A DNA stretch of 64,000 nucleotides from Candidatus Cloacimonadales bacterium (GCA_963665815.1 OY762463.1:1952001-2016000), one strand, 5' to 3'. Positions 2,715 through 64,000 are shown, numbered from the stretch's first letter. The notes: generated by a model not told the origin, from the sequence alone. Made by a program: numbers and translations.

Positions 2715-4664
2715 ATGGGAAAAATCATAGGTATTGATTTAGGAACCACAAATTCCTGCGTTAGTGTAATGGAAGGTGGAAAACCTGTTGTAATCGCAAA
2801 CCCGGAAGGTGGAAGAACTACTCCATCCGTTATAGGATTTGCAAAAGATGGACAAAAATTAGTAGGTCAACTGGCAAAACGCCAGGCAATCACAAATCCC
2901 CATAACACTGTATTCTCAATAAAAAGATTTATGGGTAGAAACCTCAACGAAGTAGGATCAGAAATTCAGACTGTTCCTTATGTGGTAAAATCCGGACCAT
3001 CCAATCAAGTTGTTGTACATATTGATCAGGATAACAAAGACTACACCCCGCAACAGATTTCAGCATTCACTCTTCAAAAAATGAAAGAAACCGCTGAAGC
3101 TTACCTCGGACAAGAAGTTAAAGAAGCTGTTATCACGGTACCGGCTTACTTCAATGATGCCCAGAGACAGGCAACCAAAGATGCTGGTAAAATTGCAGGA
3201 CTTGATGTAAAAAGAATCATCAACGAACCTACTGCTGCAGCACTTGCTTACGGAATGGAAAGTAAAAAAGAAGAGAAAGTAGCTGTATACGACCTTGGTG
3301 GAGGTACATTCGATATCTCTATCCTTGATATTTCCGAAGGTGTTGTAGAAGTACTTTCAACCAACGGTGACACTCACCTTGGTGGTGATGACTTTGATAA
3401 AATTATTATCGACTGGATGATTGATAAATTTAAAGCACAGGAAGGTGTTGATCTTTCCGGTGATGCTATGGCTAAACAAAGACTTAAAGAAGCTGCTGAA
3501 AAAGCTAAGATTGAACTTTCTGGAACTCAAACTACAAACATCAATCTTCCGTTTATCACTGCAGACGCTTCCGGCCCTAAACACATGAATCTTGATCTTT
3601 CCAAAGCTGAATTCAACAAAATGACAGGTCACCTTGTTGAAAGATCAATTGTTCCATGTCAGAAAGCTCTTCAGGATGCTAAGCTTTCAATAGGCGACAT
3701 CAATGAAGTTATCCTTGTTGGCGGATCTACCAGAATTCCTGCCGTACAGGAAGCCGTAGAAAAATTCTTTGGTAGAAAACCAAGCAAGAATGTTAATCCT
3801 GACGAAGTAGTTTCTATAGGCGCTGCTATTCAGGGCGGTATTCTTTCCGGTGATGAAAATCTGGATGACATCCTTCTTCTCGATGTAACTCCACTCTCAC
3901 TTGGTATTGAAACACTTGGAGCTGTTATGACAGCACTTATTCCGCGTAATACCACAATACCAACTAAGAAAAGCCAGATTTTCTCAACTGCTGCAGACAA
4001 TCAAACGGCTGTATCTATTCACGTACTTCAGGGTGAAAGATCAATGGCATCTGACAACAGAACACTCGGCCGTTTTGATCTCGTAGGTATTCCACCTGCA
4101 CCAAGAGGAGTCCCTCAAATAGAAGTTGTATTCGATATTGATGCAAACGGTATCCTGCACGTATCAGCTAAGGACAAGAGCACAGGCAAAGAGCAATCTA
4201 TTAAGATTGAGCGTGGTGGATCATTAAGCGAAGAAGAAATCGACAGAATGGTAAAAGATGCTGAAGCAAATGCTGAAGAAGATAGGAAACGCAAAGAAAA
4301 CATTACATCACGTAATGAGCTTGACACAATGATCTTCTCAACAGAAAAAGCACTTGAAGAACATAAAGATAAGTTAAGTGCCGATGAAGCTAAAAACATT
4401 GAAGAAGCTATAAAAGAAGCAAAAGATAAGCTCGAAAAAGCTAATTCAAAAGAAGAGTATGACAAGATCAAAGAAGAACTTGCTAAAAAAGCTCAGAAAA
4501 TCGGTGAAATAATGTATCAGAACATGCAGCAGCAACAAGGTGGTCAACCTGGTGCTGAACAGGCAGGACCACAGCCTGAACAGAATACTCAGGAAAGTCA
4601 ACAGAAGCCGGCAGATAACGGTCCGGTCGATGCAGACTTCGAAGTAGTTGATGACGATAAATAA
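2715..4664 (+). CDS. dnaK: Chaperone DnaK (Hsp70)
   Basis: [36 protein letters not shown]. Confidence 0.99.
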
Positions 4665-47915: not shown

Positions 47916-50900
47916 TTGAAAAAACACAAGTGGTTATTCATAATAGTTTCATTACTTATTCTGGTAAACCTGCTTTTTCTCATTTTCGTGAAATCAGGAT
48001 ACCTTTCAAATTATATTGAAAACCGTTTTATATCTATACTGGAAGATAATCTTGATGCAGATGTATCATACGGTGTATTCAACTTCAACGAACGGCAGCT
48101 GAGTATTCACGATCTATCAATGTATTCTGCCGACAGCAGTTTTTCTGCTGAGATTTCCAGTATCAGAGCAGATTACAGTATATGGGATATAATACTGCAT
48201 GGTGTTTCCAGAAATGGTATCATTGAGAAAATTGAAATCAACAAACCAGTAATCTCTCTTTCTGTTAAGCCATCTACAAAAACACAAAAAAACAGTAAAA
48301 ATAAATCGGATACGGTATTTGATCCTGATAATATAGAGTTAAAACCACTATTTATGGTTAACACTGCTAAAATTGTTAATGGTTCTTTTGATGTAGAATA
48401 TATCAGTAAAGAAGTCAGCCTTAAGCAGAAACTGACAAACATTAACATGAATATGAACGGTGATAAATTTAAAACTGTTGAACTCACTGCAATGACGTCA
48501 AAGGGTAACATTGCCGTTGCAACCGAATTAAGTACAAAATCCATAAGCTATGCTGATCTTATAATCAAGAATTTTACCATAGACAGCCTTAATGTAAATA
48601 AAATCGATTACCTGAAACTCGGAGTTTCGACAAACGTACATTACGAAGATAAAGAGATTACTTATTCAGGTGCACTGGAAAATATCATCGCAGAAGTAAT
48701 GGACTACAAAGTCAAAACTGACAAAATAGTATTTGCAGGATTGAATGATTCAATCAGAATATTATCTCCACATATTGCTGTGAATGACGATATGCTCAAG
48801 TTTGATGCAGTTATCACAAATTTGCTTTATGATGATAGAATTGTTGATGCTGACGTAAATTGCCGGGTTACTTTAGATCCTTTCCTGGAGGATCTAAGCG
48901 GGAATGTAGAAGCTCAATTTAAAGTTAACGGAAAAATTCTGAATCCTACTGCAGAATTCAATGTATATCTTCCTGAAACAAAGTACCAGACTCATGTTGT
49001 CAAAGCTTGCAGCCTTTCCGGTACTTACGCAGATAATGTTGTGGACTTCAATCTGAACAATATTGAATATATGGGAAACACTCTAAAAGGTAAAGGGTCA
49101 GCCAATACTAACGGAGACTTCACTATTGACATATCAGGTAAATCCCTTGCTTATTCTCAGGAAGGTACCGATTTAAAATCGAATATTAAAGCCTCGTTTG
49201 CTTTTATAGACAAGAAAATGGAAGGTTATGCAAAACTGACCAATCTAACAATAAAAAACAAAACACTGGATGTTAAAAACCTTACCGGTACAGCTGAGAT
49301 AAAAAATGATATAGCCAAAGTCAATCTTATAACACGAACACGCCGAACAGGTGAAAAGTTTGAGTGCACAGCTGAATACAACATTAAAGATCAGTCTTAC
49401 AAAGGAAATATAAACCTGAAGAGATTTGGGCTTAATGATATTCTGACAAAAAAGATATCTCAACTCAATCCATCTTTCAACGGAAAACTGGAATTCAACG
49501 GCAGCAAAAAGAACATAAATATTGAATCGAGTATTAGGTTTTACGATAAAAGTTTCGGGAAACTTGATGGTTATCTGGATTCAAGAATCGCACTTGATTT
49601 TGTGAGAAAAAGCAGTCTCATTACTTTGCGAACTAATAACGCAAAATATAATTACGAAAGTTTCAGTCTAAACCTTATGGCAAGAGGAAATCTGGACAGT
49701 CTGCGTTCAGTAAGATGTAAAATTAACAGAGATATTTCCATAGACTTCAAGGTAGTTCTTACTGAAGCAAAAAGGCTTGCATTTAAGATTAAGGCAAAAA
49801 GGCTTCCACTGAACAGATATCTTCGTTATATGGATGCAAGTTCATCATCAAGAAATACATTTGGAATTGTTAGCACGGAACTAACATTTGACTCGGCAAA
49901 AAGAAATGCCGTAAATGGAAAAATCACAATTGAAAACCTGAATTTTGACGGTGAAAAGTATGGTAGTTTCGGATTTAAGATATCCGGACGTCAGGACTCT
50001 TTAAGAATACACAATATCTCTCTGAAAGGTGTTGGGAGTACAACTTTTACTGGCGATGTCACACTTGATGCAACAAAAGGTAAACTTAAATCCGCTCAGC
50101 TTCTGATGAACAAACTTGATCTCAGTTATATTCTCCTGAATAATGAGGATTTCAAGGGCACATTAACAGGAAAGCTGAATTTCTCGGAAAGCAATAACAC
50201 GTTCTCCCTGAGAATGAATGCTGAAGACCTGAATCTGATGTCTTATCCAATTGACGATGTAAACATTGATATTCAGCAGAGAACAAGAAAGCTCATAATA
50301 AAAGACTTTTTTGTAAAAAACTCGTATAATAACCTGAGAATTACAGGATCCCTTGATCATAACTTTATTGACAACACAACCTGGGGCAGCAGAGAAAAAT
50401 TGATTGTAGCCTATAATGGTGACCTTATGCGAACAATGTCGGATAACATTCCCCCACTGCACCATGGCCGTTCCAAGAGTTCCGCTGTAATTGAAGTTGG
50501 TGTGAAAGATGAAAATATATCTCTTCTTCGTGGTGAAATAAAAATTGAAGATGGTCTAATTGAAATTGATGATCAGCCAACAAATATTACTGAACTTTTC
50601 AGTAACATCATTATTGTTAATGACACTCTTAAAATAAACAGATTTGATTTCCTTATGGGCTCAGGAAGAGTTCATATATTCAACACTGACTGGGGCAGCG
50701 AAAATCAACTAGCACTTAATAACCTGCAGCTTGGAAACGTCAGAATGAATACTGATCCGGAAGGTATTCTGGTTCATATTCCTGATTTTATGCCTAATAA
50801 GAGAATTGTAAATGTTGTTGTTAAAGGCAAGAAAAGCGATTATTTTGAGATCAACGGACCATTTGATGACATGAAAATCACCGGAGATGTGATCGTCTCA

Positions 50901-51923
50901 AATGGTGACTTCATTTTCCCGGCAGGAGTTAAGAGTCTGGTTAATCTGATTAATCAGAAAAACACTATGAATCCTGCCCAGACCAGCAAAGAAATGGCTA
51001 ATCTGCCGTTCAAGCTTGATCTGACAGCGAGAATAGGTAAACAGATACGTTATGTAACTCATCCTGCCAATGTAACAATGGATCAGGGAGGTTATCTCAA
51101 TGTTGTTTACGATGACAGTGAATTCATTGTTAAGGAAGCTCATTTCAGCTCTGAAAAAGGTACCCTTGATATGTTCGGAACTACTTTCAAAGCCAGCACT
51201 ATCAATGTTAACCTGAATCAGTTCAATCCTGAACCGGACCTGGAGATTGTCTTCGAGAAAAAAATCTCTGACGGAACTACAATCAGTCTCGCTATTCAGC
51301 CTGACGACAATAACTCTTTGCAGTTCAAGCTGGAAAGTGATAACTCCGATGATAACACTATTTCTGATATTCTGGCTAAATTACGTTATGATAGTGGCTA
51401 TGACCAGTTATCCAGCAAACAGAAACAATCCCTCATGCAGGATGATGCCATAGAAATTGCCGGATATAGTATTGAGAATGTCCTGATTTCACCTGTACTG
51501 TCCCCTATTGAAACAAGATTCAGAAAGTGGTTCAAACTTGATTATATTTATATTCAGCCCGGTTTCATTCAAAATCTGTTCCATATGTATTACAATAATG
51601 ATACAGCAGAAGAAGAAATCAATCAGCAGTCCGGCGTCAGTACGGGAGTACTTCTCAGTAATCTTTCTTTAAGCTTTGGTAAAAACATATATGATAACAC
51701 ATTCGTTCACTATAAAGGTATTATTCAGGAAATAACTGACTTGAGATCTGAAAGACTTAAACTATCCCACACCTTGAGACTGACATTCGATCTACCCGGA
51801 AAATACCAATTCTCTTATTCATATATTATAGATGAAGAAGATGAATTGAAATCACACGAAGTCAAGCTGGAGAAATCCTTTAAGTTCTCTTTTAACGGAG
51901 TGAATACAATATTTGATAAATAA
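47916..51923 (+). CDS. Large AsmA/TamB-like envelope protein
   Basis: N-terminal TM anchor, 1335 aa of beta-rich repeats, C-terminal beta-strands. Confidence 0.6.
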   Translation: MKKHKWLFIIVSLLILVNLLFLIFVKSGYLSNYIENRFISILEDNLDADVSYGVFNFNERQLSIHDLSMYSADSSFSAEISSIRADYSIWDIILHGVSRNGIIEKIEINKPVISLSVKPSTKTQKNSKNKSDTVFDPDNIELKPLFMVNTAKIVNGSFDVEYISKEVSLKQKLTNINMNMNGDKFKTVELTAMTSKGNIAVATELSTKSISYADLIIKNFTIDSLNVNKIDYLKLGVSTNVHYEDKEITYSGALENIIAEVMDYKVKTDKIVFAGLNDSIRILSPHIAVNDDMLKFDAVITNLLYDDRIVDADVNCRVTLDPFLEDLSGNVEAQFKVNGKILNPTAEFNVYLPETKYQTHVVKACSLSGTYADNVVDFNLNNIEYMGNTLKGKGSANTNGDFTIDISGKSLAYSQEGTDLKSNIKASFAFIDKKMEGYAKLTNLTIKNKTLDVKNLTGTAEIKNDIAKVNLITRTRRTGEKFECTAEYNIKDQSYKGNINLKRFGLNDILTKKISQLNPSFNGKLEFNGSKKNINIESSIRFYDKSFGKLDGYLDSRIALDFVRKSSLITLRTNNAKYNYESFSLNLMARGNLDSLRSVRCKINRDISIDFKVVLTEAKRLAFKIKAKRLPLNRYLRYMDASSSSRNTFGIVSTELTFDSAKRNAVNGKITIENLNFDGEKYGSFGFKISGRQDSLRIHNISLKGVGSTTFTGDVTLDATKGKLKSAQLLMNKLDLSYILLNNEDFKGTLTGKLNFSESNNTFSLRMNAEDLNLMSYPIDDVNIDIQQRTRKLIIKDFFVKNSYNNLRITGSLDHNFIDNTTWGSREKLIVAYNGDLMRTMSDNIPPLHHGRSKSSAVIEVGVKDENISLLRGEIKIEDGLIEIDDQPTNITELFSNIIIVNDTLKINRFDFLMGSGRVHIFNTDWGSENQLALNNLQLGNVRMNTDPEGILVHIPDFMPNKRIVNVVVKGKKSDYFEINGPFDDMKITGDVIVSNGDFIFPAGVKSLVNLINQKNTMNPAQTSKEMANLPFKLDLTARIGKQIRYVTHPANVTMDQGGYLNVVYDDSEFIVKEAHFSSEKGTLDMFGTTFKASTINVNLNQFNPEPDLEIVFEKKISDGTTISLAIQPDDNNSLQFKLESDNSDDNTISDILAKLRYDSGYDQLSSKQKQSLMQDDAIEIAGYSIENVLISPVLSPIETRFRKWFKLDYIYIQPGFIQNLFHMYYNNDTAEEEINQQSGVSTGVLLSNLSLSFGKNIYDNTFVHYKGIIQEITDLRSERLKLSHTLRLTFDLPGKYQFSYSYIIDEEDELKSHEVKLEKSFKFSFNGVNTIFDK

Positions 51924-51933
51924 TGGAGATATT

Positions 51934-53025
51934 ATGAGAAAACGGATCAGCGTAGAAAATTTATACAGATTTATGCAGGATGTTTTTGTTGGTCTCGGCG
52001 TACCAGCCGATGAAGCAAAAACCTGTGCAGATGTACTCATTCAGTCAGATCTTCATGGCATAGAGTCACATGGAGTAGGTCGTCTGAAAATGTACTATGA
52101 TAGAATCAAAGCAGGAATCCAGTTCGCGGAAACAAAAATTGATGTAATCAATGACAGAAAAGCTGTTGCAGTCTGGGATGGTAATCATGGCATGGGACAT
52201 GTTATTGCAACAAGAGCTATGCAGGAAGCAATCGATAAAGCTAAAAACTATGGTGTTGGATCTGTAGTTGTCAGAAATTCTACACACTATGGAATTGCAG
52301 GATATTATGCAAAAATGGCAATAGATCAGGATATGATAGGTATTACATTTACCAATGCCCGACCTTCCATAGCACCAACATTCTCAACCTCCCCTATGCT
52401 GGGAACAAACCCGATCTGTTTTGGCTGCCCTTCCAATCTTGAATATCCTTTCCTTTATGACGCTGCTACATCAATCTCTCAAAGAGGTAAAATTGAAGTC
52501 TTTGACAGAGAGTTCAAGGATACTCCCTCAGGCTGGGCTATTGATAAAGAAGGAAATCCCTTTACCGATACTAAACAGCTTCTGAAAGACCTTGTAAGTA
52601 AAGACGCTGCCATGCTGCCGCTTGGTGGTCAGGGTGAACTTCTCGGTGGTCATAAAGGTTACGGTCTCTCTGTAATGGTTGAAATACTCTCAGCTGCTCT
52701 GCAGAATGGTTCTTATCTGCATGGACTCCATGGATGGGAGAAAGGAAAACGTGTTCCATACAGACTCGGTCATTTCTTCCTGGCACTTAATATCGATTTC
52801 TTCACAGATATTGAAGACTTCAAGAGAATTACCGGGGATATAATGACACAGCTCAAAAATGCTGATGTTGAACCGGGTAAAGAGAAAATCTACATTGCCG
52901 GGGAAAAAGAATACTATAACACAATCGATGTTAAAGAAAACGGAGTTCCGGTTAACGAAGAACTGGAAAAAAATATAAAAATAATGCAGGAAGAACTGCA
53001 GATTGAAGATTACCTCTTCAACTAA
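51934..53025 (+). CDS. Ldh_2 family (malate/L-lactate type 2) oxidoreductase
   Basis: SDLHGIESHG, RNSTHYG, GTNPI, GGHKGYGL; GGAG RBS before ATG 51934. Confidence 0.92.
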   Translation: MRKRISVENLYRFMQDVFVGLGVPADEAKTCADVLIQSDLHGIESHGVGRLKMYYDRIKAGIQFAETKIDVINDRKAVAVWDGNHGMGHVIATRAMQEAIDKAKNYGVGSVVVRNSTHYGIAGYYAKMAIDQDMIGITFTNARPSIAPTFSTSPMLGTNPICFGCPSNLEYPFLYDAATSISQRGKIEVFDREFKDTPSGWAIDKEGNPFTDTKQLLKDLVSKDAAMLPLGGQGELLGGHKGYGLSVMVEILSAALQNGSYLHGLHGWEKGKRVPYRLGHFFLALNIDFFTDIEDFKRITGDIMTQLKNADVEPGKEKIYIAGEKEYYNTIDVKENGVPVNEELEKNIKIMQEELQIEDYLFN

Positions 53026-53033
53026 TAAAGAAT

Positions 53034-53189
53034 GAGAGCTTTGCATAATAGTAAAATTAAACAGCTTCGATGGAAAATTTCGATGAGATTTTTGAATTCC
53101 TCAGAAAAGCTATTAAGCGAAACTCATTTTGAGTAAAAGTTTGATGAATTCTAAAATCGAGTCAACTGCACCATTTATGCAAAGGTCTC
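53034..53189. mobile_element. MITE copy 2 (156 bp) with IS5-family-like TIRs
   Basis: TIRs GAGAGCTTTGCATAA / TTATGCAAAGGTCTC (14/15 match); flanks AGAAT/TGAAT; non-coding. Confidence 0.75.
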
Positions 53190-53192
53190 TGA

Positions 53193-55526
53193 ATGTTAAA
53201 GCCTGAGTTATCCATTTCTGTCAGAAATCTGGTCGAATATGTATATCGGTCAGGTCACTATGATGCTACCTATAAAGGACCCTCCAGAGCTTTGGAAGGA
53301 ACCCGGGCACACCAGAAAGTTCAGAAATCCAGACCGGATAACTACACAGCAGAAGTCTCACTGAAACATGTTCATGAAACAGAAAAATTTGATCTTGTTC
53401 TACAGGGGAGAATCGACGGTATTTTCTTTAATGAAAGCAGTATCATACTCGAAGAGATAAAATCGACTTTTCTTCCCTCGGAACACATTACTGATGGTAA
53501 CATTGTCCACTGGGCTCAAGTGTTGCTCTACGCATATGTATACTGTCTCCAGAACAATCTCGAATCTGTAGATGTGTCATTAACCTACTACCAGATTGAT
53601 GAAGAAAAAGAAGTCACCTTCAACAAACTGCAAACATTTGCACAGCTCAAAGACTTTTATAATGAGACGATCAATGAATACCTGAAGTGGGCAGAGATAA
53701 TTGTAAACAACAGAAATAAAAGAGACATAAGCATTGAAAATCTCAATTTTCCGTTTGTATTCAGAGAAGGACAACGAAAGCTTTCTGTATATGTGTATAA
53801 AGCTATTCAGGAAGAGCGGAATCTGTTTCTCGAAGCTCCAACTGGAACAGGAAAAACAATCGGCACCATCTTCCCCACTCTGAAGCATCTCAAGGATAAC
53901 CAGAAAATTTTCTACCTTGCAGCAAAGACCACCGGAAAGAATATAGCTCTTAATACACTTAGAATCCTTTCCGAGAATGGACTGAAGGCAAAGATTCTGC
54001 TATTAACAGCAAAGGATAAAGTTTGTTTTCTTGAAACCACCCAATGCTATCCGGAAAAATGTCCCTATACTATTGATTTCTACACAAAACTGAATGGAGT
54101 TACAAAAAAGCTCCTGGAAAATGATGTACTTACTACCGAACTGATCAGCCAGATTGCCGAGGAAGAGAAGGTCTGCCCTTTTGAGCTGGCACTGGAAGCT
54201 TCCCTCTACTGCGATATTATCATCTGTGACTACAACTATGTGTTTGATCCGGTTGTGTTTCTCAGACGCTTCTTTATGGATTCAGCCAGAAGATATTACT
54301 TCCTGATAGACGAAGCCCATAATCTGGTAGACAGAGCCAGAAGCATGTATTCGTCGGATATCCTGAAATCAGAAGTAATGGATCTGAAAAAACTGATGAA
54401 ACCGATATCTAAAGCTGTTCACAATAAACTGCAGGGAATCAATAAACAGTTATTGCAGATCAGAAAAGACATTGATAATGCAAAGCAGGCATCAATCAAA
54501 GACAAACCGGAAAGTCTGATCAGGAGCATTACAAAGTTCTACAAGGAATGCGAAGCCTGGTTAGCAGAGAATCAGGAATCTGAATTTAAGAATGATGTTC
54601 TGGAGTTTTTCTTCAAGTGCAATAACTTCCTGAAAATCAGTGAGATTTACGGTGATAACTACACAACATTGATAACCAATTCGAGTAGAGAACTCCGTCT
54701 GGAGCTGTTCTGCATCGATCCTGCCAGACATCTTGCTGAGTGCCTTAAAAAATCCATATCAGCAGTATTCTTCTCTGCTACCTTCCGACCTGTACAGTAT
54801 TACAGGGATCTGCTTGGCGGCACAGAAGAAGACTGGATGCTTTATCTGGATTCTCCTTTCCCACGTGAGAGCACCTCAGTATTAATATCATCATATGTGA
54901 ATACCAGATATCTGGTTAGAGATTCAAGTTACAAACACATTGCAGAAGTGATACAATCAGCTTACAAGAGCAAAGAAGGGAACTATCTTGTGTTTTTCCC
55001 ATCATACGAGTACTTGCAGAATGTTCTGACCGAGCTTGAGCCTTTACCTGATAACTTTGTTATACAGGAAAGGGATATGTCTGAGGATGAGAGAACTGAT
55101 TTTATTGAAAGATTTGAGCAGAAGCAGAACCAGATTGGTTTTGCAGTGATGGGTGGAGCTTTCGGAGAAGGAATTGACCTGACAGGAGACACACTGATAG
55201 GTGCAATTGTGATTGGGGTAGGATTACCCCAGATAAGCTATAAGAAAAACATAATAAAGGAATACTATAACGAACAGGAAGCTGATGGATTTCTGTATTC
55301 CTACTTATACCCGGGAATGAACAGAGTTCTGCAGGCTGCCGGACGTGTAATCCGAACCATGAATGATAAAGGCACAATAATTCTTTTGGACGATCGTTTT
55401 CTGACAATGAGATACAGAAATCTGTTCCCGGAAACCTGGAAGCACTATAAAGTATTCAGAAATATTGACAGCTTTGAAACAGAATGTACAGAATTCTGGG
55501 AATCGAAGAACGAGGAGGAAGAATGA
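53193..55526 (+). CDS. DinG/Rad3-family Fe-S helicase with an N-terminal PD-(D/E)XK (Cas4-like) nuclease domain
   Basis: GTRAH, GRIDG..EEIKST, Q..LY nuclease motifs; APTGTGKT, Fe-S cysteines, DEAH, FFPSY, EGIDL, QAAGRVIR. Confidence 0.9.
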   Translation: MLKPELSISVRNLVEYVYRSGHYDATYKGPSRALEGTRAHQKVQKSRPDNYTAEVSLKHVHETEKFDLVLQGRIDGIFFNESSIILEEIKSTFLPSEHITDGNIVHWAQVLLYAYVYCLQNNLESVDVSLTYYQIDEEKEVTFNKLQTFAQLKDFYNETINEYLKWAEIIVNNRNKRDISIENLNFPFVFREGQRKLSVYVYKAIQEERNLFLEAPTGTGKTIGTIFPTLKHLKDNQKIFYLAAKTTGKNIALNTLRILSENGLKAKILLLTAKDKVCFLETTQCYPEKCPYTIDFYTKLNGVTKKLLENDVLTTELISQIAEEEKVCPFELALEASLYCDIIICDYNYVFDPVVFLRRFFMDSARRYYFLIDEAHNLVDRARSMYSSDILKSEVMDLKKLMKPISKAVHNKLQGINKQLLQIRKDIDNAKQASIKDKPESLIRSITKFYKECEAWLAENQESEFKNDVLEFFFKCNNFLKISEIYGDNYTTLITNSSRELRLELFCIDPARHLAECLKKSISAVFFSATFRPVQYYRDLLGGTEEDWMLYLDSPFPRESTSVLISSYVNTRYLVRDSSYKHIAEVIQSAYKSKEGNYLVFFPSYEYLQNVLTELEPLPDNFVIQERDMSEDERTDFIERFEQKQNQIGFAVMGGAFGEGIDLTGDTLIGAIVIGVGLPQISYKKNIIKEYYNEQEADGFLYSYLYPGMNRVLQAAGRVIRTMNDKGTIILLDDRFLTMRYRNLFPETWKHYKVFRNIDSFETECTEFWESKNEEEE

Positions 55527-55915
55527 TTAAGCAAGTTATAAATATTCGTACTGACCGAAAAGACCAGATGAAGAATATCACAAGTCATTTACGTGATTTC
55601 ATCCGAGAGAACGGTATTGAAGAAGGCAGATTGACTGTGTTTGTTCCACATACAACTGCTGCCGTGACGATAAACGAGAATGCTGACCCTACAGTTCAGT
55701 CTGACATGCTGTACTCTCTGGACAAGATTTCTCCGGACTATCCTGCATTCCGCCATATGGAAGGCAACTCCGATGCACATGTAAAAAGCTCATTGATTGG
55801 CTGTTCTCAGGATGTATTTGTGTTTGATGGAAGCCTGATGCTGGGAACCTGGCAGGGAGTATATTTCTGTGAGTTTGACGGACCGAGATCCAGAAAGTTC
55901 TATATTGTCGGATGA
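55523..55915 (+). CDS. yjbQ: YjbQ (UPF0047) family protein
   Basis: HTTAAVTINENADP, EGNSDAH, LGTWQGVYFCEFDGPR; ATGA overlap with the helicase stop. Confidence 0.93.
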   Translation: MIKQVINIRTDRKDQMKNITSHLRDFIRENGIEEGRLTVFVPHTTAAVTINENADPTVQSDMLYSLDKISPDYPAFRHMEGNSDAHVKSSLIGCSQDVFVFDGSLMLGTWQGVYFCEFDGPRSRKFYIVG

Positions 55916-55974
55916 TTTTGAGTAGTAATTATTGTTCATCTTCGCATTTACCTGCTGAAGGATTCCATGCAAAT

Positions 55975-56123
55975 CACCTTCGGAATGGTTGAAAACCTTC
56001 CGAATGGTGTGACTGGTAATGCTGATAATATAAAATCGGAAACTTAATGCACACCATGAGACACAAGATGTTGTGTCTCTACAATTATTGGAAGACAATG
56101 TGACGTTAAAACGTCACTCCCAT
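55975..56123. repeat. Cluster of REP-like palindromes (spacer A)
   Basis: CACCTTCGGAATGGTT-gaa-AACCTTCCGAATGGTG (55975-56009); GAGACACAAGATGTTGTGTCTCTAC (56058-56082); GTGACGTTAAAACGTCAC (near 56100). Confidence 0.75.
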
Positions 56124-56258
56124 GGGGGGACTGCTTCATCTGTACAAAATATAATTTTGAACTTTGATAAAGAAGGATAATAATCCCATGAACAATTTTC
56201 TTGACCATTTGCCGTTAATGAGCTCAATTTTACTATATTATGGAGTAAGGAGACAGGA

Positions 56259-57205
56259 TTGTACGTAGGAAATAACGTAACGAATTTACAGGAAGACCAT
56301 TATTATCCACTGAGCAGGTTTGGAATGAGACTTGGAGGATTATCCTCTACCAATGGAGATAAATCCAATAAATTCATTTACAACGGAAAAGAATTTGAAG
56401 ATGAGAATAATGTACCTCCTATGGTCTTCGAACTGACGTTCTATAGACTTCGGAGTGGAGACTCTCGCCTGCGGCTACGAGCTCTTTTTTGGAGACTTTC
56501 GGGCTTTACCCTGCAAGCTCGTAGCTACCACTACGGAGTGCGTTATTACGACCCACAGCTTGGGCGCTGGCACGCTATAGACCCGGCTGAGGAATTCTTT
56601 AGCCCTTACAATTATTGTGCTAACAATCCTATTATGTTTGTTGACCCGGATGGGGCTATGTCAACTGCTGCTTTACCTTTAGCAGCTTTTGAGATCGGTT
56701 TAGGTTCAACTGCAGCAGCAGGGGCTGGCCTTATAGTGATTTTTGGTATTTCTTTTTATGTAACAGACTGTATTATGGATGAAATTCAAGAAAAGAATTT
56801 GCGGAAGCCCAAGCAGAAGAAAATAATAAAGGAGTTGCTTTTATTCATGCTTGTAAGTTAGAGGGACAATCCACTCCTCATGTTTCAATTGAAATTTGGG
56901 GACTGAATTCGGAGCTTTCGGTTGATGATTCCAAAAATACCTATGTACAAATTGTAAAAAACCACAACTTGGAGATAAGAAAGTTGACTATATTGGAACA
57001 ATTCCAGTTGTTGTTAACAATCCAGTAGCTCTATCTGAATATCAGTCAAGCACTCTATATCAATCAAGAGGACAATGGAATTCTGGAAATAATTGTCTAA
57101 CTTATGTTATGGAAGTTTATAAATGCAGGTGGTTCTAACTACAAAAGCAGAAAGATAACAAAAGATCTAAAAATGAATAACAAAAAAATGAATCCAACAT
57201 GGTAA
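56259..57205 (+). pseudogene. Orphan RHS core plus papain-fold-like toxin tip, triply frameshifted (cassette 1)
   Basis: [41 protein letters not shown]; shifts near 56794, 56961 and 57118 restore ...PHVSIEI...GNNCLTYVMEVINAGG...W* ending at TAA 57203-57205. Confidence 0.75.
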
Positions 57206-57227
57206 AACAAGAGAGAAGGAGATAAAT

Positions 57228-57554
57228 ATGCCACCAACAAAGTGCTCAAAACATGGCAAAACCTTTGCAATTTCCTTGTGCAAGCATGTAGAACAAGCTT
57301 TAAATAAGGATATTCCTATTGACATTGTTCATGTATGCATTGATTTTTTTGAGGAATATATGTGTCTCTCGTGCTTTGAACTTTATAAAGATTGTAATAC
57401 ATTGGAAGATATTGAAAAAGTTGCCACAAAAGATTCTTGGAATGCCAAGTGTGTCGACTGTTTCAGAGAATATCTTGCCAGTCATAATATTATTCCTCTA
57501 AAACATTTTGTTAATACTTTTTTTGGTGAGGAATGTTCGTTTCTTACAGGCTAA
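57228..57554 (+). CDS. Cys/His-rich putative immunity protein (cassette 1)
   Basis: AGGAG RBS; CxxHG, CxH, CxxC, CxxC; directly after the toxin tip. Confidence 0.65.
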   Translation: MPPTKCSKHGKTFAISLCKHVEQALNKDIPIDIVHVCIDFFEEYMCLSCFELYKDCNTLEDIEKVATKDSWNAKCVDCFREYLASHNIIPLKHFVNTFFGEECSFLTG

Positions 57555-57572
57555 TCTATGATTTATATACAT

Positions 57573-58258
57573 CAAGCCAGAAACAAGTTTTCTGGCTTGT
57601 TCTGTTTGAACCTTGATTTTCATGATTGAAGTATTGCTCACCTGAACACCTTCCAAATGGTTAAAGACCTTTTGAATGGTGTGACTAACTGCTGTTTTTT
57701 GGTGAAATTAATACTGTGAAGTACCCCCTTCAACGAATAGGAATAGTACATCCTACGTTGTTTGTAGGGAACAAATATATTTGTTCAGAATTTTAAACCC
57801 TCTGTCTCGTAAACTCGACATCTCTACCAGACTGTGTAAAAACGGGTTGTGATAGAAAACTAATCCTTATTTTTGTCGCAGATTTCGACTCCGCTCAATC
57901 AACTTAATCTGTTATAATCAATAGAGTTATAAGTTTCCTGAGTCCCGATAAAGTCGGAAAAGGGAATATGATGTGAACAAAAGAAACGACAATAATTACG
58001 TTTTTACACAGTCTGTCCGTAGATGTTTCTGTTAGAACACCTCCATAGATGCATTAGGGAGAACTTTGTCTGTACGAGCTTGTACAGTTCTGATATACGC
58101 GTAGAGACAAACGGCCGTTTGTCTCAGAATTAGACGTTGCATGCAACGTCTCTACAGAGACTAGAATCAGGATTTACCTGAGTAAATCGACTATGCCTAT
58201 TTCACATTGACATTCCAAGCCCCCCATTCGCAAGGACAGGTCCATTGCGAAGGGGGCT
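57573..58258. repeat. Ordered mosaic of REP-like palindromes (spacer B)
   Basis: Hairpins at 57573-57599, 57647-57681, 57764-57786 (GTAGGGAACAA...TTGTTC), 58101-58125 (GTAGAGACAAACGGCCGTTTGTCTC), 58132-58155 (AGACGTTGCATGCAACGTCTCTAC) and 58218-58258. Confidence 0.85.
57828..58015. mobile_element. MITE, 188 bp, with perfect 17-bp TIRs
   Basis: CAGACTGTGTAAAAACG / CGTTTTTACACAGTCTG; absent from the homologous site at 63221-63241. Confidence 0.8.
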
Positions 58259-58399
58259 ATATATGGGGGTACTGCTTTAGCTGTACAAAATATAATGTTG
58301 AACTTTTATAAAGAAGGATTGTAATCTCAAGAATAATTTTCTTGACCTTTTGCCACTAATGGGCTCAATTTAGCGATAAAATGGAGTAAGGAGGTAGGA

Positions 58400-59287
58400 T
58401 TGAACGTAGGAAATAACGTAACGAATTTACAGGAAGACCATTATTATCCACTGAGCAGGTTTGGAATGAGACTTGGAGGATTATCCTCTACCAATGGAGA
58501 TAAATCCAATAAATTCATTTACAACGGAAAAGAATTTGAAGATGAGAATAATGTACCTCCTATGGTTCTCGGATTCAAATCCTACGAACTTCGGAGTGGA
58601 GACTCTCGCCTGCGGCTACGAGCTCTTTTTTGGAGACTTTCGGGCTTTACCCTGCAAGCTCGTAGCTACCACTACGGAGTGCGTTATTACGACCCACAGC
58701 TTGGGCGTTGGCATTCCATAGATCCTGCTGATGAGTTCTTTAGCCCTTATGTGTATTGCCACAACGACCCAGTGAACTTTGTTGATCCGGATGGGGCGGA
58801 AAGAGAAAGTAAATACAATGTGAATGATTTCTCAGCACAAGACATAGCTGATCTACTCAAAAACAATGGATATGAGGAAACAAAGAAAAAATTTGGAGAA
58901 GTTACAAGTTATTCAATAGTTGCTTTATTGGTTGCAGTATGGAGGGAAACTCACAACAAACGTTATTCAGAATTTCTAACTTGTGATATAGAACCAGAAG
59001 AAAAACTCTATTCTCTTCAGAAACACAATACTACTGATGATGCAAGTAAGAAATCTGCTGATACAGGGAATGGTATGTGGAAAGCATATGCAATAATGTT
59101 TGTATCTGGAGTTGTAGGAGGAATATCTTATGGCTTGCAATGGGTTGGACTTATTACTACAGGAGGGAATGTTGCTGTTGATTCAAAATCAGCTGTGGAT
59201 TTAGCAAAGGATAATGATGACAAGCTGGAAGAAGCTGCAGATATTTATAATGAAGAAAGAGGATACTATGATGATGATGAAGATTAA
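58400..59287 (+). CDS. Orphan RHS core plus toxin tip with a hydrophobic Gly-rich segment (cassette 2)
   Basis: Same core as cassette 1 up to DPDG (ends 58795); tip contains [31 protein letters not shown] start after GGAGTAAGGAG. Confidence 0.75.
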
Positions 59288-60176
59288 TTTATTCGCAATT
59301 TGTTTTATATGCTTTTTATGTAATATATCTAGTTTGGGCTGTCAGGTGACTGATAAAGAAAAAAGATGTAAGGAGCTTGAAGCAAGATTTGATAGTGTTA
59401 ACACAATACATGATTACAATTATGTATTGGATAATGAAGCTGATATTGAATGGTTAGTAGAGAATTCAGATAATTTTCAAGTCAGAAACTTTTATGCTGT
59501 GAGACTTCTAGAAGCTAATTTCATAATGAAAAATTATAATAAATCGTTACAATTTGTAGAGATATTGTTAAATGATCTACCATTTGAAGAATTTGAACAA
59601 TATCAGCTTAAAACTAAGTTTATAATTGACTATAGACTGAACTCAGCTATCAATAACGAACTTTTGAATAAGTTGGAATTGAATAATATAACAACATTAG
59701 ACAATATAATTTTTGCATTACATATTAATAGGCTAATCAATTCAGATTTTAATCCCGTTAATTTCTTGGAAAAGTACAATATAGAGATTAATTATCCGCC
59801 ATATCAAGCAGTCTACATCTATCTATACTTAGCTAGTCGTGCAATTGAGACTAATGATTATTTAAGTGCAAAAGAAAATTTAGTTCTTGCAGAGAAAAAA
59901 ATTGAATCCATGGCTAATATTTCTGAAGCAAGCAGAAATGTTTATTTTGTTAAACTTATACTATGGAAAAGTATTGTTGCCTATAAGGAAAACAGAATTG
60001 AAGATGCTAAGCAATTTTATTCAAATGCAATAGAATTGAGCAAAACAATTTGCATGATAAAGACAAGTACTATTGATCACCTGCTTGATTTCTATACAAT
60101 TGTTGAAGTTAATAATGAATTTAAAGATATAATCAGAGAGCTTGATAAGTCATACAGGAAAGAACAGAAAAAGTAG
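59268..60176 (+). CDS. Putative exported helical/TPR-like immunity protein (cassette 2)
   Basis: Start in the ATG run 59268-59279 overlapping the toxin 3' end; signal peptide ending SLGC; helical repeats. Confidence 0.6.
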
Positions 60177-60351
60177 TTCAGCTACTGTAAATAATACTAC
60201 GCCAGAAACATGTTTTCTGGCTTATTTTTCCGTGTCCTTTAGTGTATTCCATGTTTGAATCCTAATGGGATTGTAATCCCATGAACAATTTCCTTGACCA
60301 TTTGCCGCTAATGAGCTCAATTTTGCTACATTATGGAGTAAGGAGACAGGA

Positions 60352-61356
60352 TTGTATCTGGGAAACACAGCTTTAATAGTGCAAGAAGACCATTATTATC
60401 CACTGAGCAGCTTTGGAATGAGACTTGGTGGTATCTCCTCTGATACCGGGCAGGAAAACAAGTTCCTCTACAACGGAAAAGAATTTGAAGATGAGAATAA
60501 TGTACCTCCTATGGTCTTCGAACTGACGTTCTATAGACTTCGGAGTGGAGACTCTCGCCTGCGGCTACGAGCTCTTTTTTGGAGACTTTCGGGCTATGCC
60601 TTGCAAGATCGTAGCTACCACTACGGAGTGCGTTATTACGACCCACAGCTTGGTTCTGGGAGACTTTCGGGCTATGCCTTGCAAGCTCATTGCTGGATGG
60701 CAGTTGACCCGGCTGATGAGTTCTTTAGTCCTTATGTGTATTGCCATAACGACCCGGTTAATTTTGTTGATCCGGATGGCAGAATAGTACGAGTAAACCA
60801 AGATTTTGCCCAAACCAGAACATACAAACTTTATTCAAGTACTGAAGGAGGAAAAGCCCAATTAGCACAATTCCAAGCTGGAGGTAAATATGAACATCAT
60901 GTACTTGAAATTGGTTACAAAAGGAAAATGTGGTCTTCAGGTTCTCAAAGCTCAGGTACATATAATTCACAGGGAGTTTTTGTCAAAGCTGATGTCGGAG
61001 TTCCATTTGGTGAAAGAAGCATAGTGTTTAAAATTAATATTAATAAAGAAATGAACGAACGCACCGAACAGCGTTCAAAGTGTGATTATAGAGTGGCTTC
61101 AATGGTTGAAACAGTTAGCCATGAAGTCGACCACTCTATTGACGAAGCCAATGCAGGTTATAATCTACCTTTTAGAGAAGGTGAAAACAAAGTGTCAGAG
61201 TATAATTCTGTTCATAACAGAATGAATATTATTCTTGATGTTTTTATAATGTTGGGAACAACAGATTTCTATCCTGAACCAGATAAAGCAGCTTACGAAA
61301 TTGCAACCGATCACTTGAATCATAATGAGGATGTTTACAATGAAACAAAACCTTAA
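60352..61356 (+). CDS. Orphan RHS core plus HExxH metallopeptidase-like toxin tip (cassette 3)
   Basis: Core ends at DPDG (60780); tip has ETVSHEVDH and a downstream E...YNS; TTG start after GGAGTAAGGAG. Confidence 0.75.
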   Translation: MYLGNTALIVQEDHYYPLSSFGMRLGGISSDTGQENKFLYNGKEFEDENNVPPMVFELTFYRLRSGDSRLRLRALFWRLSGYALQDRSYHYGVRYYDPQLGSGRLSGYALQAHCWMAVDPADEFFSPYVYCHNDPVNFVDPDGRIVRVNQDFAQTRTYKLYSSTEGGKAQLAQFQAGGKYEHHVLEIGYKRKMWSSGSQSSGTYNSQGVFVKADVGVPFGERSIVFKININKEMNERTEQRSKCDYRVASMVETVSHEVDHSIDEANAGYNLPFREGENKVSEYNSVHNRMNIILDVFIMLGTTDFYPEPDKAAYEIATDHLNHNEDVYNETKP

Positions 61357-62092
61357 AATTTTCTTTTTTGCCTGTATTTTGTGTAGCTTTTTACCATTAT
61401 GCTGTCAAGAGTTCTTAGTGTACAACTTTGATTCAGATATAAGTGATTGCTATTATTTTGAGAGATGGAAACTCCTACATAACATTAGTGATGATGACGC
61501 TGATATTAAACATAAGAAGATAAATGAAGTTAACTCAAAGTACTTAGGATATGGAAAAGAATTCTACTCTAAGTTGACATCTGGGAGAAAAGGTGTTTCA
61601 AAAACAATATTCGAAACTAAGGATGAAAAAATATCCGGAAAAAACTATGTTCGATACTCAAAAGCATGGTCTTGCTCTGACAGTCAGATTCCTTTTACAT
61701 TTGAAGGAAACAGAATTAGGTGTAGAATAGGAAAATCACCTTTCTTTAGTAGACCTTTTTTTGTTTCAAAAGATTTTGAGAGTTTGGTTTCTTACTTTTT
61801 TTCGACAACTCATGATTCTCTTTTAATTTTTAAAGACAATGAATGGATTACATTGTTCTCAAAAAGCGAAACTAATTCTTGCTTAGAAAATATATTTGGG
61901 AAAATTTATCATTTGGGCTCGTATTCGAAAAAGAATTTTTTTGATTATGTTTACTCAGATATTGATGAGTTTCTAGTTATCTCAAACTTAAATGGTTATT
62001 TGACATTTAGTCTTGTATGGTTTAATGAAAGGTGGGAGATTCTGAGAATTGAGTCTTCAGATAATCAATTCGGTGTCTTGAGAATCCCATAA
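61340..62092 (+). CDS. Putative exported immunity protein (cassette 3)
   Basis: Overlaps the toxin stop; signal peptide MKQNLKIFFFACILCSFLPLCC. Confidence 0.6.
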   Translation: MKQNLKIFFFACILCSFLPLCCQEFLVYNFDSDISDCYYFERWKLLHNISDDDADIKHKKINEVNSKYLGYGKEFYSKLTSGRKGVSKTIFETKDEKISGKNYVRYSKAWSCSDSQIPFTFEGNRIRCRIGKSPFFSRPFFVSKDFESLVSYFFSTTHDSLLIFKDNEWITLFSKSETNSCLENIFGKIYHLGSYSKKNFFDYVYSDIDEFLVISNLNGYLTFSLVWFNERWEILRIESSDNQFGVLRIP

Positions 62093-62137
62093 CTAAGTAT
62101 TGTAAGCCGACTCTATTTACGTTTATGTCCATTTTTC

Positions 62138-62168
62138 TGTAGCCTTTCTGTAAAATAGAAAGGCTACA
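62138..62168. terminator. Hairpin after the cassette 3 immunity gene
   Basis: TGTAGCCTTTCT-gtaaaat-AGAAAGGCTACA. Confidence 0.65.
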
Positions 62169-62256
62169 ATTATAATTCTAGGAATATTTCTCCTCCTATT
62201 GAGTCTACCCCATATTTTGTACTAAGTCTAAGTTTGGTAAGTTTGAGTTATTCTGA

Positions 62257-62430
62257 TTAATTTTATTTTCATATATCAAGAGATATTCCATTGGTAATAT
62301 CATAACAAAGAAAAGCTGTCAAACCAGTGTATCAGCAGCTTTACGAGAAATTGATGGTTTTAAAGATATTTCTCATAAAGTATTGCCAGCTAGTCTGGGA
62401 AGACAATTATCCAAAAAAGAAGGAGTGTAA
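62257..62430 (+). pseudogene. Remnant 3' end of a toxin tip (cassette 4)
   Basis: Open frame without a start: ...RYSIGNIITKKSCQTSVSAALREIDGFKDISHKVLPASLGRQLSKKEGV*; its end carries the AGGAG RBS of the next gene. Confidence 0.5.
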
Positions 62431-62431
62431 A

Positions 62432-62884
62432 TTGAAGAATATGTTCTCTTTAAACAAGATCAAAATTAAATACTGTGAATTTAAAAAATATGTTGCTTTT
62501 AACTTGATATATGCAATAATTGCAAGTGTAGCATATATAAAATACAGAATAGATTTAATTGATTTCAACCTTTATGATCTGGCAGCATTTCTGATAGTAT
62601 TTTCGATTATGTCATTTGTTCTATCTCCAGCAAATTTCCTGATATGCAAATTTCCTAGTAAAAAAGGAATAGTTATTTTGCAATTAATTTTTGCTTCTTT
62701 GTATTCATTAACTTTATTTTCCATCATCTGTTATGAAAGCGAAAATCTTGATATTAGTTTCATTTATATACTAAAAAGATTTTGGAGAGATTATCTGGAT
62801 TTCTTCAAATTCTCATTGCTTTACTCTGCAGGATGGGATTTTTTTATGTGTCACAAATTCAGAAAAAAAAGGATAGTGTTCTAA
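62432..62884 (+). CDS. Multi-pass membrane protein, putative orphan immunity (cassette 4)
   Basis: Three to four hydrophobic helices; start TTG 62432 or ATG 62441 after AGGAG; followed by the shared cassette-end hairpin. Confidence 0.55.
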   Translation: MKNMFSLNKIKIKYCEFKKYVAFNLIYAIIASVAYIKYRIDLIDFNLYDLAAFLIVFSIMSFVLSPANFLICKFPSKKGIVILQLIFASLYSLTLFSIICYESENLDISFIYILKRFWRDYLDFFKFSLLYSAGWDFFMCHKFRKKRIVF

Positions 62885-62950
62885 TATGCGTATATTCAAG
62901 AATTTAGCTATGTGAGAAACATAATTAGGAAATGAATAATATTCAGCTAC

Positions 62951-63330
62951 AAGCCAGAAACTCGTTTTCTGGCTTTTTCTGTCTGAACCTTGATTTTCAT
63001 GATTGAAGGATTGCTTTGGAATAAGCCCTTGCGCATGGCTGAAAGCCTCCGCAATGGTGGATTTAAACCAGGGAAAATGGGGGAAATAAATGCGGTTTCA
63101 CCACCCCGTCTTCGATTTTAAATCGAATTAACACCGCCAGCGGATGGAAATTGACGCTATTGCGTTGTTTGTAGGGAACAATAATCATTGTTCCGGATTT
63201 TAAACCCTCTGTCTCGCACGCTCGACATCTCCCCGTAGATGTTTTCGAAGAAATACATCCAGAGAAAGACGAGGGAGAACCAATAACCTGTGTAGTCCTG
63301 CTATGCGTAGAGACAACCGGACGGTTGTCT
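62951..63330. repeat. Ordered mosaic of REP-like palindromes (spacer D), colinear with spacer B
   Basis: AAGCCAGAAAC-tc-GTTTTCTGGCTT, GAACCTTGATTTTCATGATTGAAG, GTAGGGAACAA...TTGTTCC (63171-63194), AAACCCTCTGTCTCG...CTCGACATCTC, GTAGAGACAACCGGACGGTTGTCT (63307-63330). Confidence 0.85.
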
Positions 63331-63658
63331 ATGATTGGAATGTGTTCTACACACCTCCCGCCTTCTGCATACTCCCGTAGTGTTTAACCTGAATTGTCAG
63401 GTAAAGTAACAGAATTCCGTGCAGAACGTGCAGTATTATTTTGGAATTTCTTCCATGTAGAGTAGAAACAAATAAACATTAGAAAGGCGAAGATATTAAA
63501 TACAATAAGATCATTTCAGCACTGAAAGAAAATCAATCCCGATATGCAATCTGTATAAACTCACTTCCACAAAATCGGTCTTAACCATTAAAAAATTGAA
63601 ATATTGACATCAGAATCCGGTTTTATATGTTGGAAGAAAAATTATTCAGGAATAAAAT

Positions 63659-64000
63659 ATGATTGGATTACATAAAAAAATTTACATGTCTTTGTTGATA
63701 ATAGTGTTAGTTACCGGTTTATTTGCGTCTGTTAACGATAAATATAAATTCGGGCTTCAGATGTTTAAGGATGCCCTCTATGAAGAAGCTATACTCGAGT
63801 TTGAGAAGATTATTGAAGAAGCTCCAACTTCCACTGAAGCACAACAATCACTATTCTATATAGGTGAATCTTACCGTTTAAGAGAAGACTTTGTCAAAGC
63901 AGAAATATATTACAAGAAACTGCTTGATGGTTATCCCTCTAACTCCGGTAGAGACCGAACTCTATTTTACTATGGTAATGTCCTTTCTGCACAGAAGAAA
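63659..64000 (+). CDS. Exported TPR protein (runs off the window end)
   Basis: Manual translation MIGLHKKIYMSLLIIVLVTGLFASVNDKYKFGLQMFKDALYEEAILEFEKII...SLFYIGESY...; TTGACA at 63604. Confidence 0.8.
   Translation, partial: MIGLHKKIYMSLLIIVLVTGLFASVNDKYKFGLQMFKDALYEEAILEFEKIIEEAPTSTEAQQSLFYIGESYRLREDFVKAEIYYKKLLDGYPSNSGRDRTLFYYGNVLSAQKK

Follow-up and report, generated by a model that had tools for sequence, protein, structure and literature searches.

Composite hairpin inserts in orphan RHS cores of a Candidatus Cloacimonadales bacterium: a candidate genus-specific, ORF-compatible palindromic repeat

How the most conserved motifs of a protein core can hold stretches of extra DNA without losing their reading frame is the question raised by three tandem orphan RHS cassettes, all on the + strand, that lie in the window, a 64,000-nucleotide (nt) stretch of DNA from a Candidatus Cloacimonadales bacterium (GCA_963665815.1, OY762463.1:1952001-2016000) analysed here as a whole. 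The window's own genome (G000) consists of 3.96 Mb in one contig with 36% G+C, and a sister genome of the same genus is referred to as G001. The original prediction, made from the sequence alone, took the extra DNA for a family of coding hairpin elements, similar to repetitive extragenic palindromic sequences (REPs), that repeatedly targets the RHS core. The results described below are best explained, in our view and with moderate confidence, if the inserts represent a genus-specific, non-autonomous palindromic repeat, compatible with open reading frames (ORFs), which colonises orphan RHS cassettes. The host cassettes and their scores against TIGR03696 (NCBIfam, RHS repeat-associated core; curated cut-off 32.5 bits) were as follows.

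56259..56861, + strand: orphan RHS cassette 1, core fragment and C-terminal tip (stop-to-stop frame 56205-56858); 59.2 bits, profile positions 29-75
58400..59287, + strand: orphan RHS cassette 2; 62.5 bits, profile positions 29-75
60352..61356, + strand: orphan RHS cassette 3; 41.8 bits, profile positions 38-75 only

All three ORFs exceed the cut-off, thus the host genes are members of the RHS core family. A clean orphan core aligns over the full profile (1-75, 69.8 bits), and it is because of the inserts that the alignments of the window ORFs are confined to positions 29-75 or 38-75; the alignment to TIGR03696 that accompanied the original prediction as a proposed check hence revealed a profile match interrupted by the inserts. 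The protein P0016, which carries a deletion and an extra insert, gave no TIGR03696 match. Uninterrupted reference cores were collected by a tblastn search of the whole genome using a clean core from the same genome as query. The clean core at G000 2111752-2111468 reads QEDHYYPFGMRLGG with DDYNLNWYHYG intact, and in comparison with such paralogues extra DNA was found within the conserved motifs of all three window cores, every previously given coordinate being correct. The inserts are listed here in the form in which we now divide them.

56310..56318, + strand: 9-nt insert CTGAGCAGG (LSR) between YYP and FGM, cassette 1
58451-58459 and 60403-60411: further copies of the 9-nt insert (LSS in copy 3)
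56410..56525, + strand: composite element copy 1, with head at about 56410-56422, A module 56423-56449 (GGTCT/TC/GAACTGACGTTC/TAT/AGACT), linker 56450-56456, B unit 56457-56485 and C unit 56491-56525; covariance-model match at G000 2008410-2008461, 73.7 bits
58551..58666, + strand: composite element copy 2, with the other allele of the A module (GGTTC/TC/GGATTCAAATCC/TAC/GAACT, identical to the A module at G000 2110353), B unit 58598-58626 and C unit 58632-58666; model match 77.2 bits
60500..60615, + strand: composite element copy 3, with the A module as in copy 1, B unit 60547-60575 and C unit 60581-60615 (inner hairpin GGGCTATGCCT); model match 73.7 bits
60655..60693 (core 60659-60689), + strand: extra C-type unit of copy 3 at the turn between LG and RW, net +36 nt

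The 9-nt insert, confirmed in all three copies, also occurs in an orphan at G000 140-1012 and is missing from the other paralogous cores of the genome; a paralogue contig compared with the window skips precisely 9 nt at 56310. It is not a hairpin module. Between NNV and YHYG, 111 extra nt are present at 56415-56525, 58556-58666 and 60505-60615. They had been divided into separate inserts of 45, 27 and 33 nt; the extra DNA is real, and the division did not stand, because the 5′ part of the element, its head, is conserved even at sites where the flanking DNA is not RHS, which puts the start of the element at about 56410. A single composite element would therefore fit better than a set of three inserts that leaves native D and W codons between them. 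The further net 36 nt in copy 3, described before as a repeat of the 33-nt element, was confirmed as a C-type unit, and a second RHS core family of the genome has a B unit at the matching position.

The composite element is built in the order head, A hairpin, linker and one to five tandem B/C units, and its copies are about 75-190 nt long. The head reads A[TG]GT[AG][CT]CTCCTATG, and the linker is TTCGGAGTG, the GGAG of which can pair with CTCC of the head. The A hairpin has a 5-bp outer stem, TC, an inner 4-bp stem with loop, one of the triplets TAC, TAT or TGC, and the other strand of the outer stem. The tandem units are 27-36 nt long and consist of TGGAGACTYTC, an inner hairpin that varies, T-R-C, RAGCTC and a short tail. 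The unit exists in the versions B and C, and a third version (AAAGATTC...GAACTT) stands between A and B at some sites. The minimum-energy folds of A, B and C reproduce the common order of stem, TC, inner hairpin, triplet and stem on either strand, in agreement with the architecture proposed originally.

A census of composites in the genome was carried out with a head-anchored pattern and with a covariance model built from 25 A-module sequences. The two agreed on the same 24 composites in G000, so that the genome search and covariance model suggested with the original prediction did uncover a repeated family. Two purely structural pattern scans of the genome had been too noisy (214+201 and 174+204 matches versus about 175 and about 100 in shuffled sequence) and were for this reason replaced by the head-anchored patterns and the model. 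The RHS arrays contain 23 of the 24 composites, many of them within ORFs, and one lies in unrelated intergenic DNA. The elements occupy two RHS core families at eight or more different 5′ junctions, in the following places.

Family 1, between EDEN and WYHYG: the window copies and G000 1054733, 1057797, 2106646, 2108089, 2110353, 2125078 and 3361491
Family 1, between LG and W: C unit only, in window copy 3
Family 1, between SP and NDP: G000 1054890, element read in a different frame
Family 2 (core about 45% identical), between QIG and W: lone B unit, net +34 nt, shifting the frame
Family 2, between NPAN and LDGA: TAG just before LDGA
Family 2, after RFLE: in-frame TAA
Inter-cassette DNA: G000 2713, 5026, 3358284 and 3963438
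Cassettes with the entire core replaced up to LDGA: G000 521820 and 524563
Intergenic non-RHS locus, minus strand: G000 3456135 (3456009-3456200; L024 1383-1572), with a poly-C head, A hairpin and tandem array

In the array at the intergenic locus, a B-like unit of 30 nt is repeated perfectly in tandem 4.9 times after the A module. A type III toxin-antitoxin (ToxI-like) interpretation of this 30-nt array was rejected, as there is no gene downstream on that strand. The region of about 900 nt that holds the array also contains two copies of another short repeat (GGTACCCCCGGCG...).

Outside this genome the element was rare. A BLAST search found it in 2 of 61 related genomes, namely that of the window and a second genome from its genus, and the covariance model matched the same two genomes of 101, with 24 matches in G000, eight in G001 (E values for the two 1e-15 to 5e-6) and none in the 99 other relatives. 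The exact degenerate pattern of head, A module and linker was scanned in one genome for each of 185,579 species and occurred at only three loci, all in one metagenome-assembled genome of Candidatus Cloacimonadales; it had no match in metagenome contigs, and such exact-pattern scans may exclude records of the window's own genome. A looser B/C pattern, which returned at least 115 stretches across the collection, nearly all chance matches in unrelated taxa, was discarded in favour of the stricter A pattern. When the core with its insert was used as query against proteins, 193 were returned, and the first 170 residues of the best 60 were inspected. Among these best 60 of 193, the insert peptides were present in six proteins of the own genome and otherwise only in P0004 and P0044, both from one 1.28-Mb contig; the other proteins in which the motif was visible read LNWYHYGARYYDP uninterrupted, and P0007 is an orphan of the own genome with a clean core. 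The element appears to be lineage-specific, being confined in these searches to two genomes of one genus. Rfam 15 gave no relevant match at E values up to 5 for 55900-61500, nor at E values up to 1 for four other element loci. In one protein of the protein search above, a metagenomic RHS orphan from an unrelated source (P0033), a different insert of eight residues, LRQAQCIA, was seen exactly between YYP and FGM; this position may tolerate inserts in general, or it may be a hot spot.

Sequence comparison of the copies indicated that base pairing is kept and the encoded peptide is not. In the 25-sequence alignment, helices 2 and 3 of the A module are 99% paired, six of the nine pairs change on both sides and at least seven double substitutions were counted. 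None of 500 column shuffles reached the observed covariation score or percentage paired, and sliding the partners by 1-3 columns reduced pairing to 22-56%. The inner hairpins of the B and C units have at least five different stems (GCC/GGC, GGAC/GTCC, GGGC/GCCC, GGGT/ACCC and ACC/GGT) between nearly constant arms, and the encoded peptide differs among the copies (e.g., PPMVLGFASCE). Since pairing is kept while the peptide varies, selection or repair acts on the pairing of the nucleic acid. The four compensatory pairs reported to distinguish the window copies are likewise real: copies 1 and 2 differ at 11 of the 27 A positions and at none in the approximately 160 nt before and 118 nt after. Thermodynamic stability was rejected as evidence of structure, because single sense-strand modules are no more stable than shuffles.

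The second property common to the copies is the shortage of stop codons on one strand. The 23 unique composites (2209 nt) contain 31 stops over the three sense frames and 108 on the antisense strand, where dinucleotide-preserving shuffles gave an expectation of 92 +/- 6 and none of 500 was as low as 31; in the 110 nt upstream of the elements the numbers were 128 (sense) and 104 (antisense). Even the bulge triplets (TAC, TGC, TAT, TCC or GGA) are never a stop. With stops avoided in the sense frames, the family is open in any landing frame in one orientation only, which is the one observed: each of the 23 composites of the RHS arrays points in the sense direction of rhs. None of the window inserts shifts the frame or brings an in-frame stop, and at the EDEN site of family 1 eight of nine composites are in frame and stop-free; at G000 2125078 the A module is 1 nt shorter and the frame is broken. 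The earlier statement that no insert shifts the frame or contains a stop was accurate for the window and for RHS family 1, and failed elsewhere, where copies do shift the frame or introduce stops.

The in-frame, stop-free state of the EDEN composites is also what would be expected if the extra peptides were a native, selected feature of the RHS cores of this lineage, and at least one insertion site, between YDxxG and R of a YD repeat, falls at what is presumably a turn. This explanation has scarcely any probability left and is already largely refuted. G000 has only two long rhs ORFs (3337 and 1354 residues), both with clean cores, and the one long rhs ORF seen in G001 (at least 2568 residues) is clean as well, so the view that the inserts are not native to functional RHS proteins has held; by our own tally, elements are present in 17 of 24 orphan cores versus none of three long rhs ORFs. 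The peptide sequence varies with the base pairing kept, the element is read in another frame at G000 1054890, does not keep the frame in family 2 and lies in non-coding DNA at G000 3456135, and the inspected RHS orphans from outside in which the motif is visible are without it.

The modules might instead act as RNA structures in the orphan transcripts, affecting stability, processing or translation control, which would explain the fixed sense orientation. We regard this as improbable, even though, besides the strict orientation, one outer pair is G-U in 22 of the 25 sequences, that is, able to pair only on the sense strand, and the CUCC of the head pairs with the GGAG of the linker. The sense fold is not better than shuffles (z -1.3), A-C mismatches in some arms could form pairs on the antisense strand alone, and Rfam offers no match. 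Hammerhead and twister ribozymes and group II domain V were dropped by eye, as neither their conserved cores nor an Rfam match was present.

The junctions of the elements preserve traces of exchange between copies. At G000 1054733 and 2108089 the first C unit runs straight to CATTGC joined to TGGATGGCA; in window copy 3 the same 3′ junction belongs to the second C unit, and the join deletes 13 residues. These joins are deletions between direct C-unit copies. At G000 1057797 the core 5′ junction is joined to an inter-cassette 3′ flank, and in a family 2 core of G001 A+B spans from the RFLE junction to the junction before TGGCA, the two types being separate in G000. The A module of window copy 2 is identical to that at G000 2110353 although their flanks differ, and the difference between window copies 1 and 2 is a conversion patch that does not extend beyond the hairpin. 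The inter-cassette site was found both filled (G000 2713 and others) and empty (G000 ~2110760 and ~2104440); the filled form has a 32-nt leader and the element in place of TTAGCCAG and alters the C-terminal end of a small convergent ORF. The only terminal inverted match is one of 5 nt, CTATG/CATAG. The assembled contigs of four sequencing runs, compared with 55900-57300, yielded only own-genome paralogues and a distant relative, with no informative presence/absence joint.

That small ORF runs convergently to the rhs cassettes (…ITGVIGKTLILEFKGKSMVLSQDEQAEFGLIYSIEPDS…) and is located at G000 2104002-2104445 (+), with fragments at G000 2110555-2110770, 2739-3005, 3358116-3358337 and 1057809-1058048. 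It is duplicated, mostly as fragments, together with each inter-cassette leader, and the inter-cassette elements sit at its 3′ end.

Recombinant junctions located exactly at the elements raise the alternative that the modules are functional cis-sites of cassette exchange, where a recombinase or nuclease would recognise the folded modules and capture, delete or swap RHS toxin cassettes in an attC-like manner. The elements do stand at cassette-relevant places, within the shared core and between cassettes, in a single orientation throughout, and their conserved arms, free but always paired inner hairpins and small internal loops resemble protein-recognised sites, with a low intrinsic stability that fits a protein-assisted structure. 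Nevertheless, this explanation is doubtful: no recombinase is among the ORFs listed for the surroundings of the window array, the Y1 transposase genes do not track the element, no core site of the GTTRRRY type occurs in the sequences read, deletions between direct repeats need no dedicated enzyme, and one array lies in unrelated intergenic DNA. A more specific version, and a somewhat more doubtful one, is that the modules are the attC-like sites of an as yet unseen polymorphic-toxin cassette system, folded as single strands and stop-free so that they can sit in frame in the RHS core, with a recombinase that would capture, delete and reshuffle toxin-immunity cassettes; the five units at the intergenic locus would then serve as a reservoir or as a landing pad.

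The prediction had linked the elements, through a GTAG tetranucleotide on the opposite strand, to the REP-associated tyrosine transposases (RAYTs). It is very unlikely, on the following grounds, that they belong to the REP or REPIN type and depend for their movement on either of the two RAYT-like Y1 (HUH) transposases of the genome. The genome does have two Y1_Tnp genes (40.4 and 27 bits), and many modules read GTAG, a hairpin and GA in antisense. The tetranucleotide is not fixed, however, being GTAG, GCAG, ATAG, GGAG or TCCG depending on the module, and the modules are mostly intragenic and all in direct orientation, not in inverted pairs. One of the Y1 genes, a RAYT-like gene of 162 residues (G000 2133689-2134177, minus strand; L049 1369-1857), is flanked on both sides by an unrelated 33-nt palindrome (CCTTCGCAATGGTCC...TTGCGAATGG), which recurs at about seven other places and, together with the gene, has the appearance of a separate, classic REPIN-RAYT arrangement. 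The pattern scan placed no A, B or C module next to either Y1 gene, the flanks of the second gene not having been searched by BLAST. Y1_Tnp is present in 15 of 21 relatives versus the element in 2 of 101, so the two do not co-occur, and the genome possesses another, canonical GTAG-plus-hairpin repeat. On the gene flanks, the pattern scan and the lack of co-occurrence, RAYT was rejected as the mobiliser, and because of these findings and the varying tetranucleotide the elements are not filed under REP/RAYT. Of the original proposal, a repeated, covarying and coding-compatible family at several non-homologous core sites is what remained; the RAYT link was not supported. The canonical REP-like repeat just mentioned lies in the window at 63307-63330 (GTAG plus an 8-bp hairpin, GTAGAGACAACCGGACGGTTGTCT) and is present elsewhere in the genome in 14 or more copies, including one near the RAYT-like gene; its sequence is unrelated to the RHS hairpin modules.

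We return to the reading that the inserts are a genus-specific, non-autonomous, ORF-compatible palindromic repeat colonising orphan RHS cassettes. It builds on steps that the analysis established: the repetition of the element, its restriction to one genus, its presence at several junctions, the conservation of pairing, the avoidance of stops and the recombination between copies. The stop-free sense strand would let a copy inserted in the rhs direction sit inside the ORF without ending it, and copies would persist mainly in displaced orphan cores, where the function of the RHS shell may be dispensable. Homologous recombination and gene conversion in short patches, anchored on the conserved head and linkers, could spread it between cassettes, and some enzyme or template switching would on rare occasions create a new insertion. 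Only copies that are in frame and free of stops would survive in family 1, because the downstream toxin frame is still selected. Of the roles put forward in the original prediction (nicking or recombination sites, recombination barriers, RNA structures), only recombination between copies was observed, and it may be a by-product.

Several observations weigh against this reading. No mobilising enzyme was found for the element. Neither a target-site duplication nor a clear terminal inverted repeat was detected at the 24 junctions and one empty/filled set, and at several sites target bases seem to have been replaced instead of the element being cleanly inserted, thus true transposition is not demonstrated. 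That 23 of 24 composites are tied to RHS arrays would be strange if the element were purely selfish, and may hint at a function. For the bias toward orphans, only three long genes were available for comparison. The frame is broken by copies of family 2 (+34 nt, TAA or TAG at the junctions), so ORF compatibility is not universal, and since the copies are related, the covariation and stop statistics count few independent events. Folding is weak: single modules reach -3 to -6 kcal/mol as single-stranded DNA, with z values of -1.4 to +0.3 (sense) and -2.5 to -0.3 (antisense), and the whole 131-nt element as RNA has z -1.3 (sense) and -4.3 (antisense), the latter helped by a 10-bp pairing of the B arm with the C tail.

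The RHS array of the window (56205-62100) consists of orphans only, with no long rhs gene upstream. The C-terminal tip of cassette 1 belongs to no Pfam family, and the following ORFs are putative immunity genes by their position.

57228..57554, + strand: ORF 3′ of cassette 1, no Pfam family, putative immunity gene by position only
59214-60176 and 61325-62092: ORFs, putative immunity genes inferred by position only

Upstream of the array are genes with putative names read from their translations: one is TamB-like, two further ORFs are dehydrogenase-like and helicase-like, and one ORF is small. A CTCGTTTTGGCTTTTTCTGTCTGAACC-like repeat lies behind cassettes in several RHS arrays (window 57584-57613 and 62961-62990; G000 1057406 and 2125352) and is probably part of the shared inter-cassette leader. 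With their displaced C-terminal tips, TIGR03696 core piece and presumed immunity genes next to them, the cassettes resemble ordinary RHS orphans, and according to PMC3482391 such displaced tips are known to recombine with a main rhs gene.

Compared with known systems, the element would seem by analogy nearest to the Rickettsia palindromic elements (RPEs) in behaviour and to REPs and integron attC sites in architecture. Like RPEs, it is a lineage-specific palindromic repeat inserted in frame and open in the host frame (family 1), a likeness of functional class and not of sequence family. Unlike RPEs, which are about 150 bp long and occur in many unrelated genes, it forms composites of about 75-190 nt with tandem 27-36-nt units, is found in RHS arrays and at one intergenic locus, and breaks the frame in some copies. 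REPs of the REP/RAYT system are extragenic, often stand in inverted pairs and have a conserved GTAG at the 5′ foot, and the RAYT gene is flanked by its own repeats. The present element shares with REPs and REPINs the short imperfect palindromes, the conserved arms, a GTAG-like tetranucleotide in many modules and the presence of RAYT-like genes in the genome, but it is not extragenic (23 of 24 in RHS arrays), does not form inverted pairs, varies in its tetranucleotide and does not co-occur with Y1. attC sites are 57-141 nt long, lie at the 3′ end of cassettes, have RYYYAAC/GTTRRRY boxes and need IntI. The features in common with them are a folded site with conserved outer boxes, small bulges and a free self-complementary centre, and arrays of promoterless, often toxin-related cassettes, whereas the aligned modules have no RYYYAAC/GTTRRRY boxes and no integrase was noticed among the ORFs of window 50000-64000, a dedicated integrase search not having been made. 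The GC-rich palindromic clusters of fungal mitochondria and the 'byp' elements are organellar mobile hairpins, and byps are skipped by the ribosome; the inserts are likewise GC-rich hairpins in AT-rich coding sequence, but, being stop-free and in frame, they need no ribosome bypass. [quoted passage not shown] The present element is also a small non-autonomous repeat in tens of copies, but unlike MITEs it has no terminal inverted repeat beyond 5 nt, no target-site duplication and no parent insertion sequence. At the level of titles and abstracts, no literature on hairpin repeats in RHS cores, or on Rhs inserts in Cloacimon* organisms, was found, and supplements might mention them.

For the annotation of RHS genes, the consequence is that matches to the RHS core profile are broken up by the inserts and that cassettes can escape detection, as in P0016. 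Repeats that live in bacterial coding sequence without ending it are rare, RPEs being the textbook case, and the element described here would be a second example of an ORF-compatible coding repeat, with a signature of its own: pairing kept, peptide free and stops avoided on the sense strand only. It would thus be a rare bacterial case of selfish-looking DNA within coding sequence. The confinement to RHS, the deletions and the hairpin swaps together may provide a natural system for the movement and recombination of palindromes and for the turnover of toxin tips.

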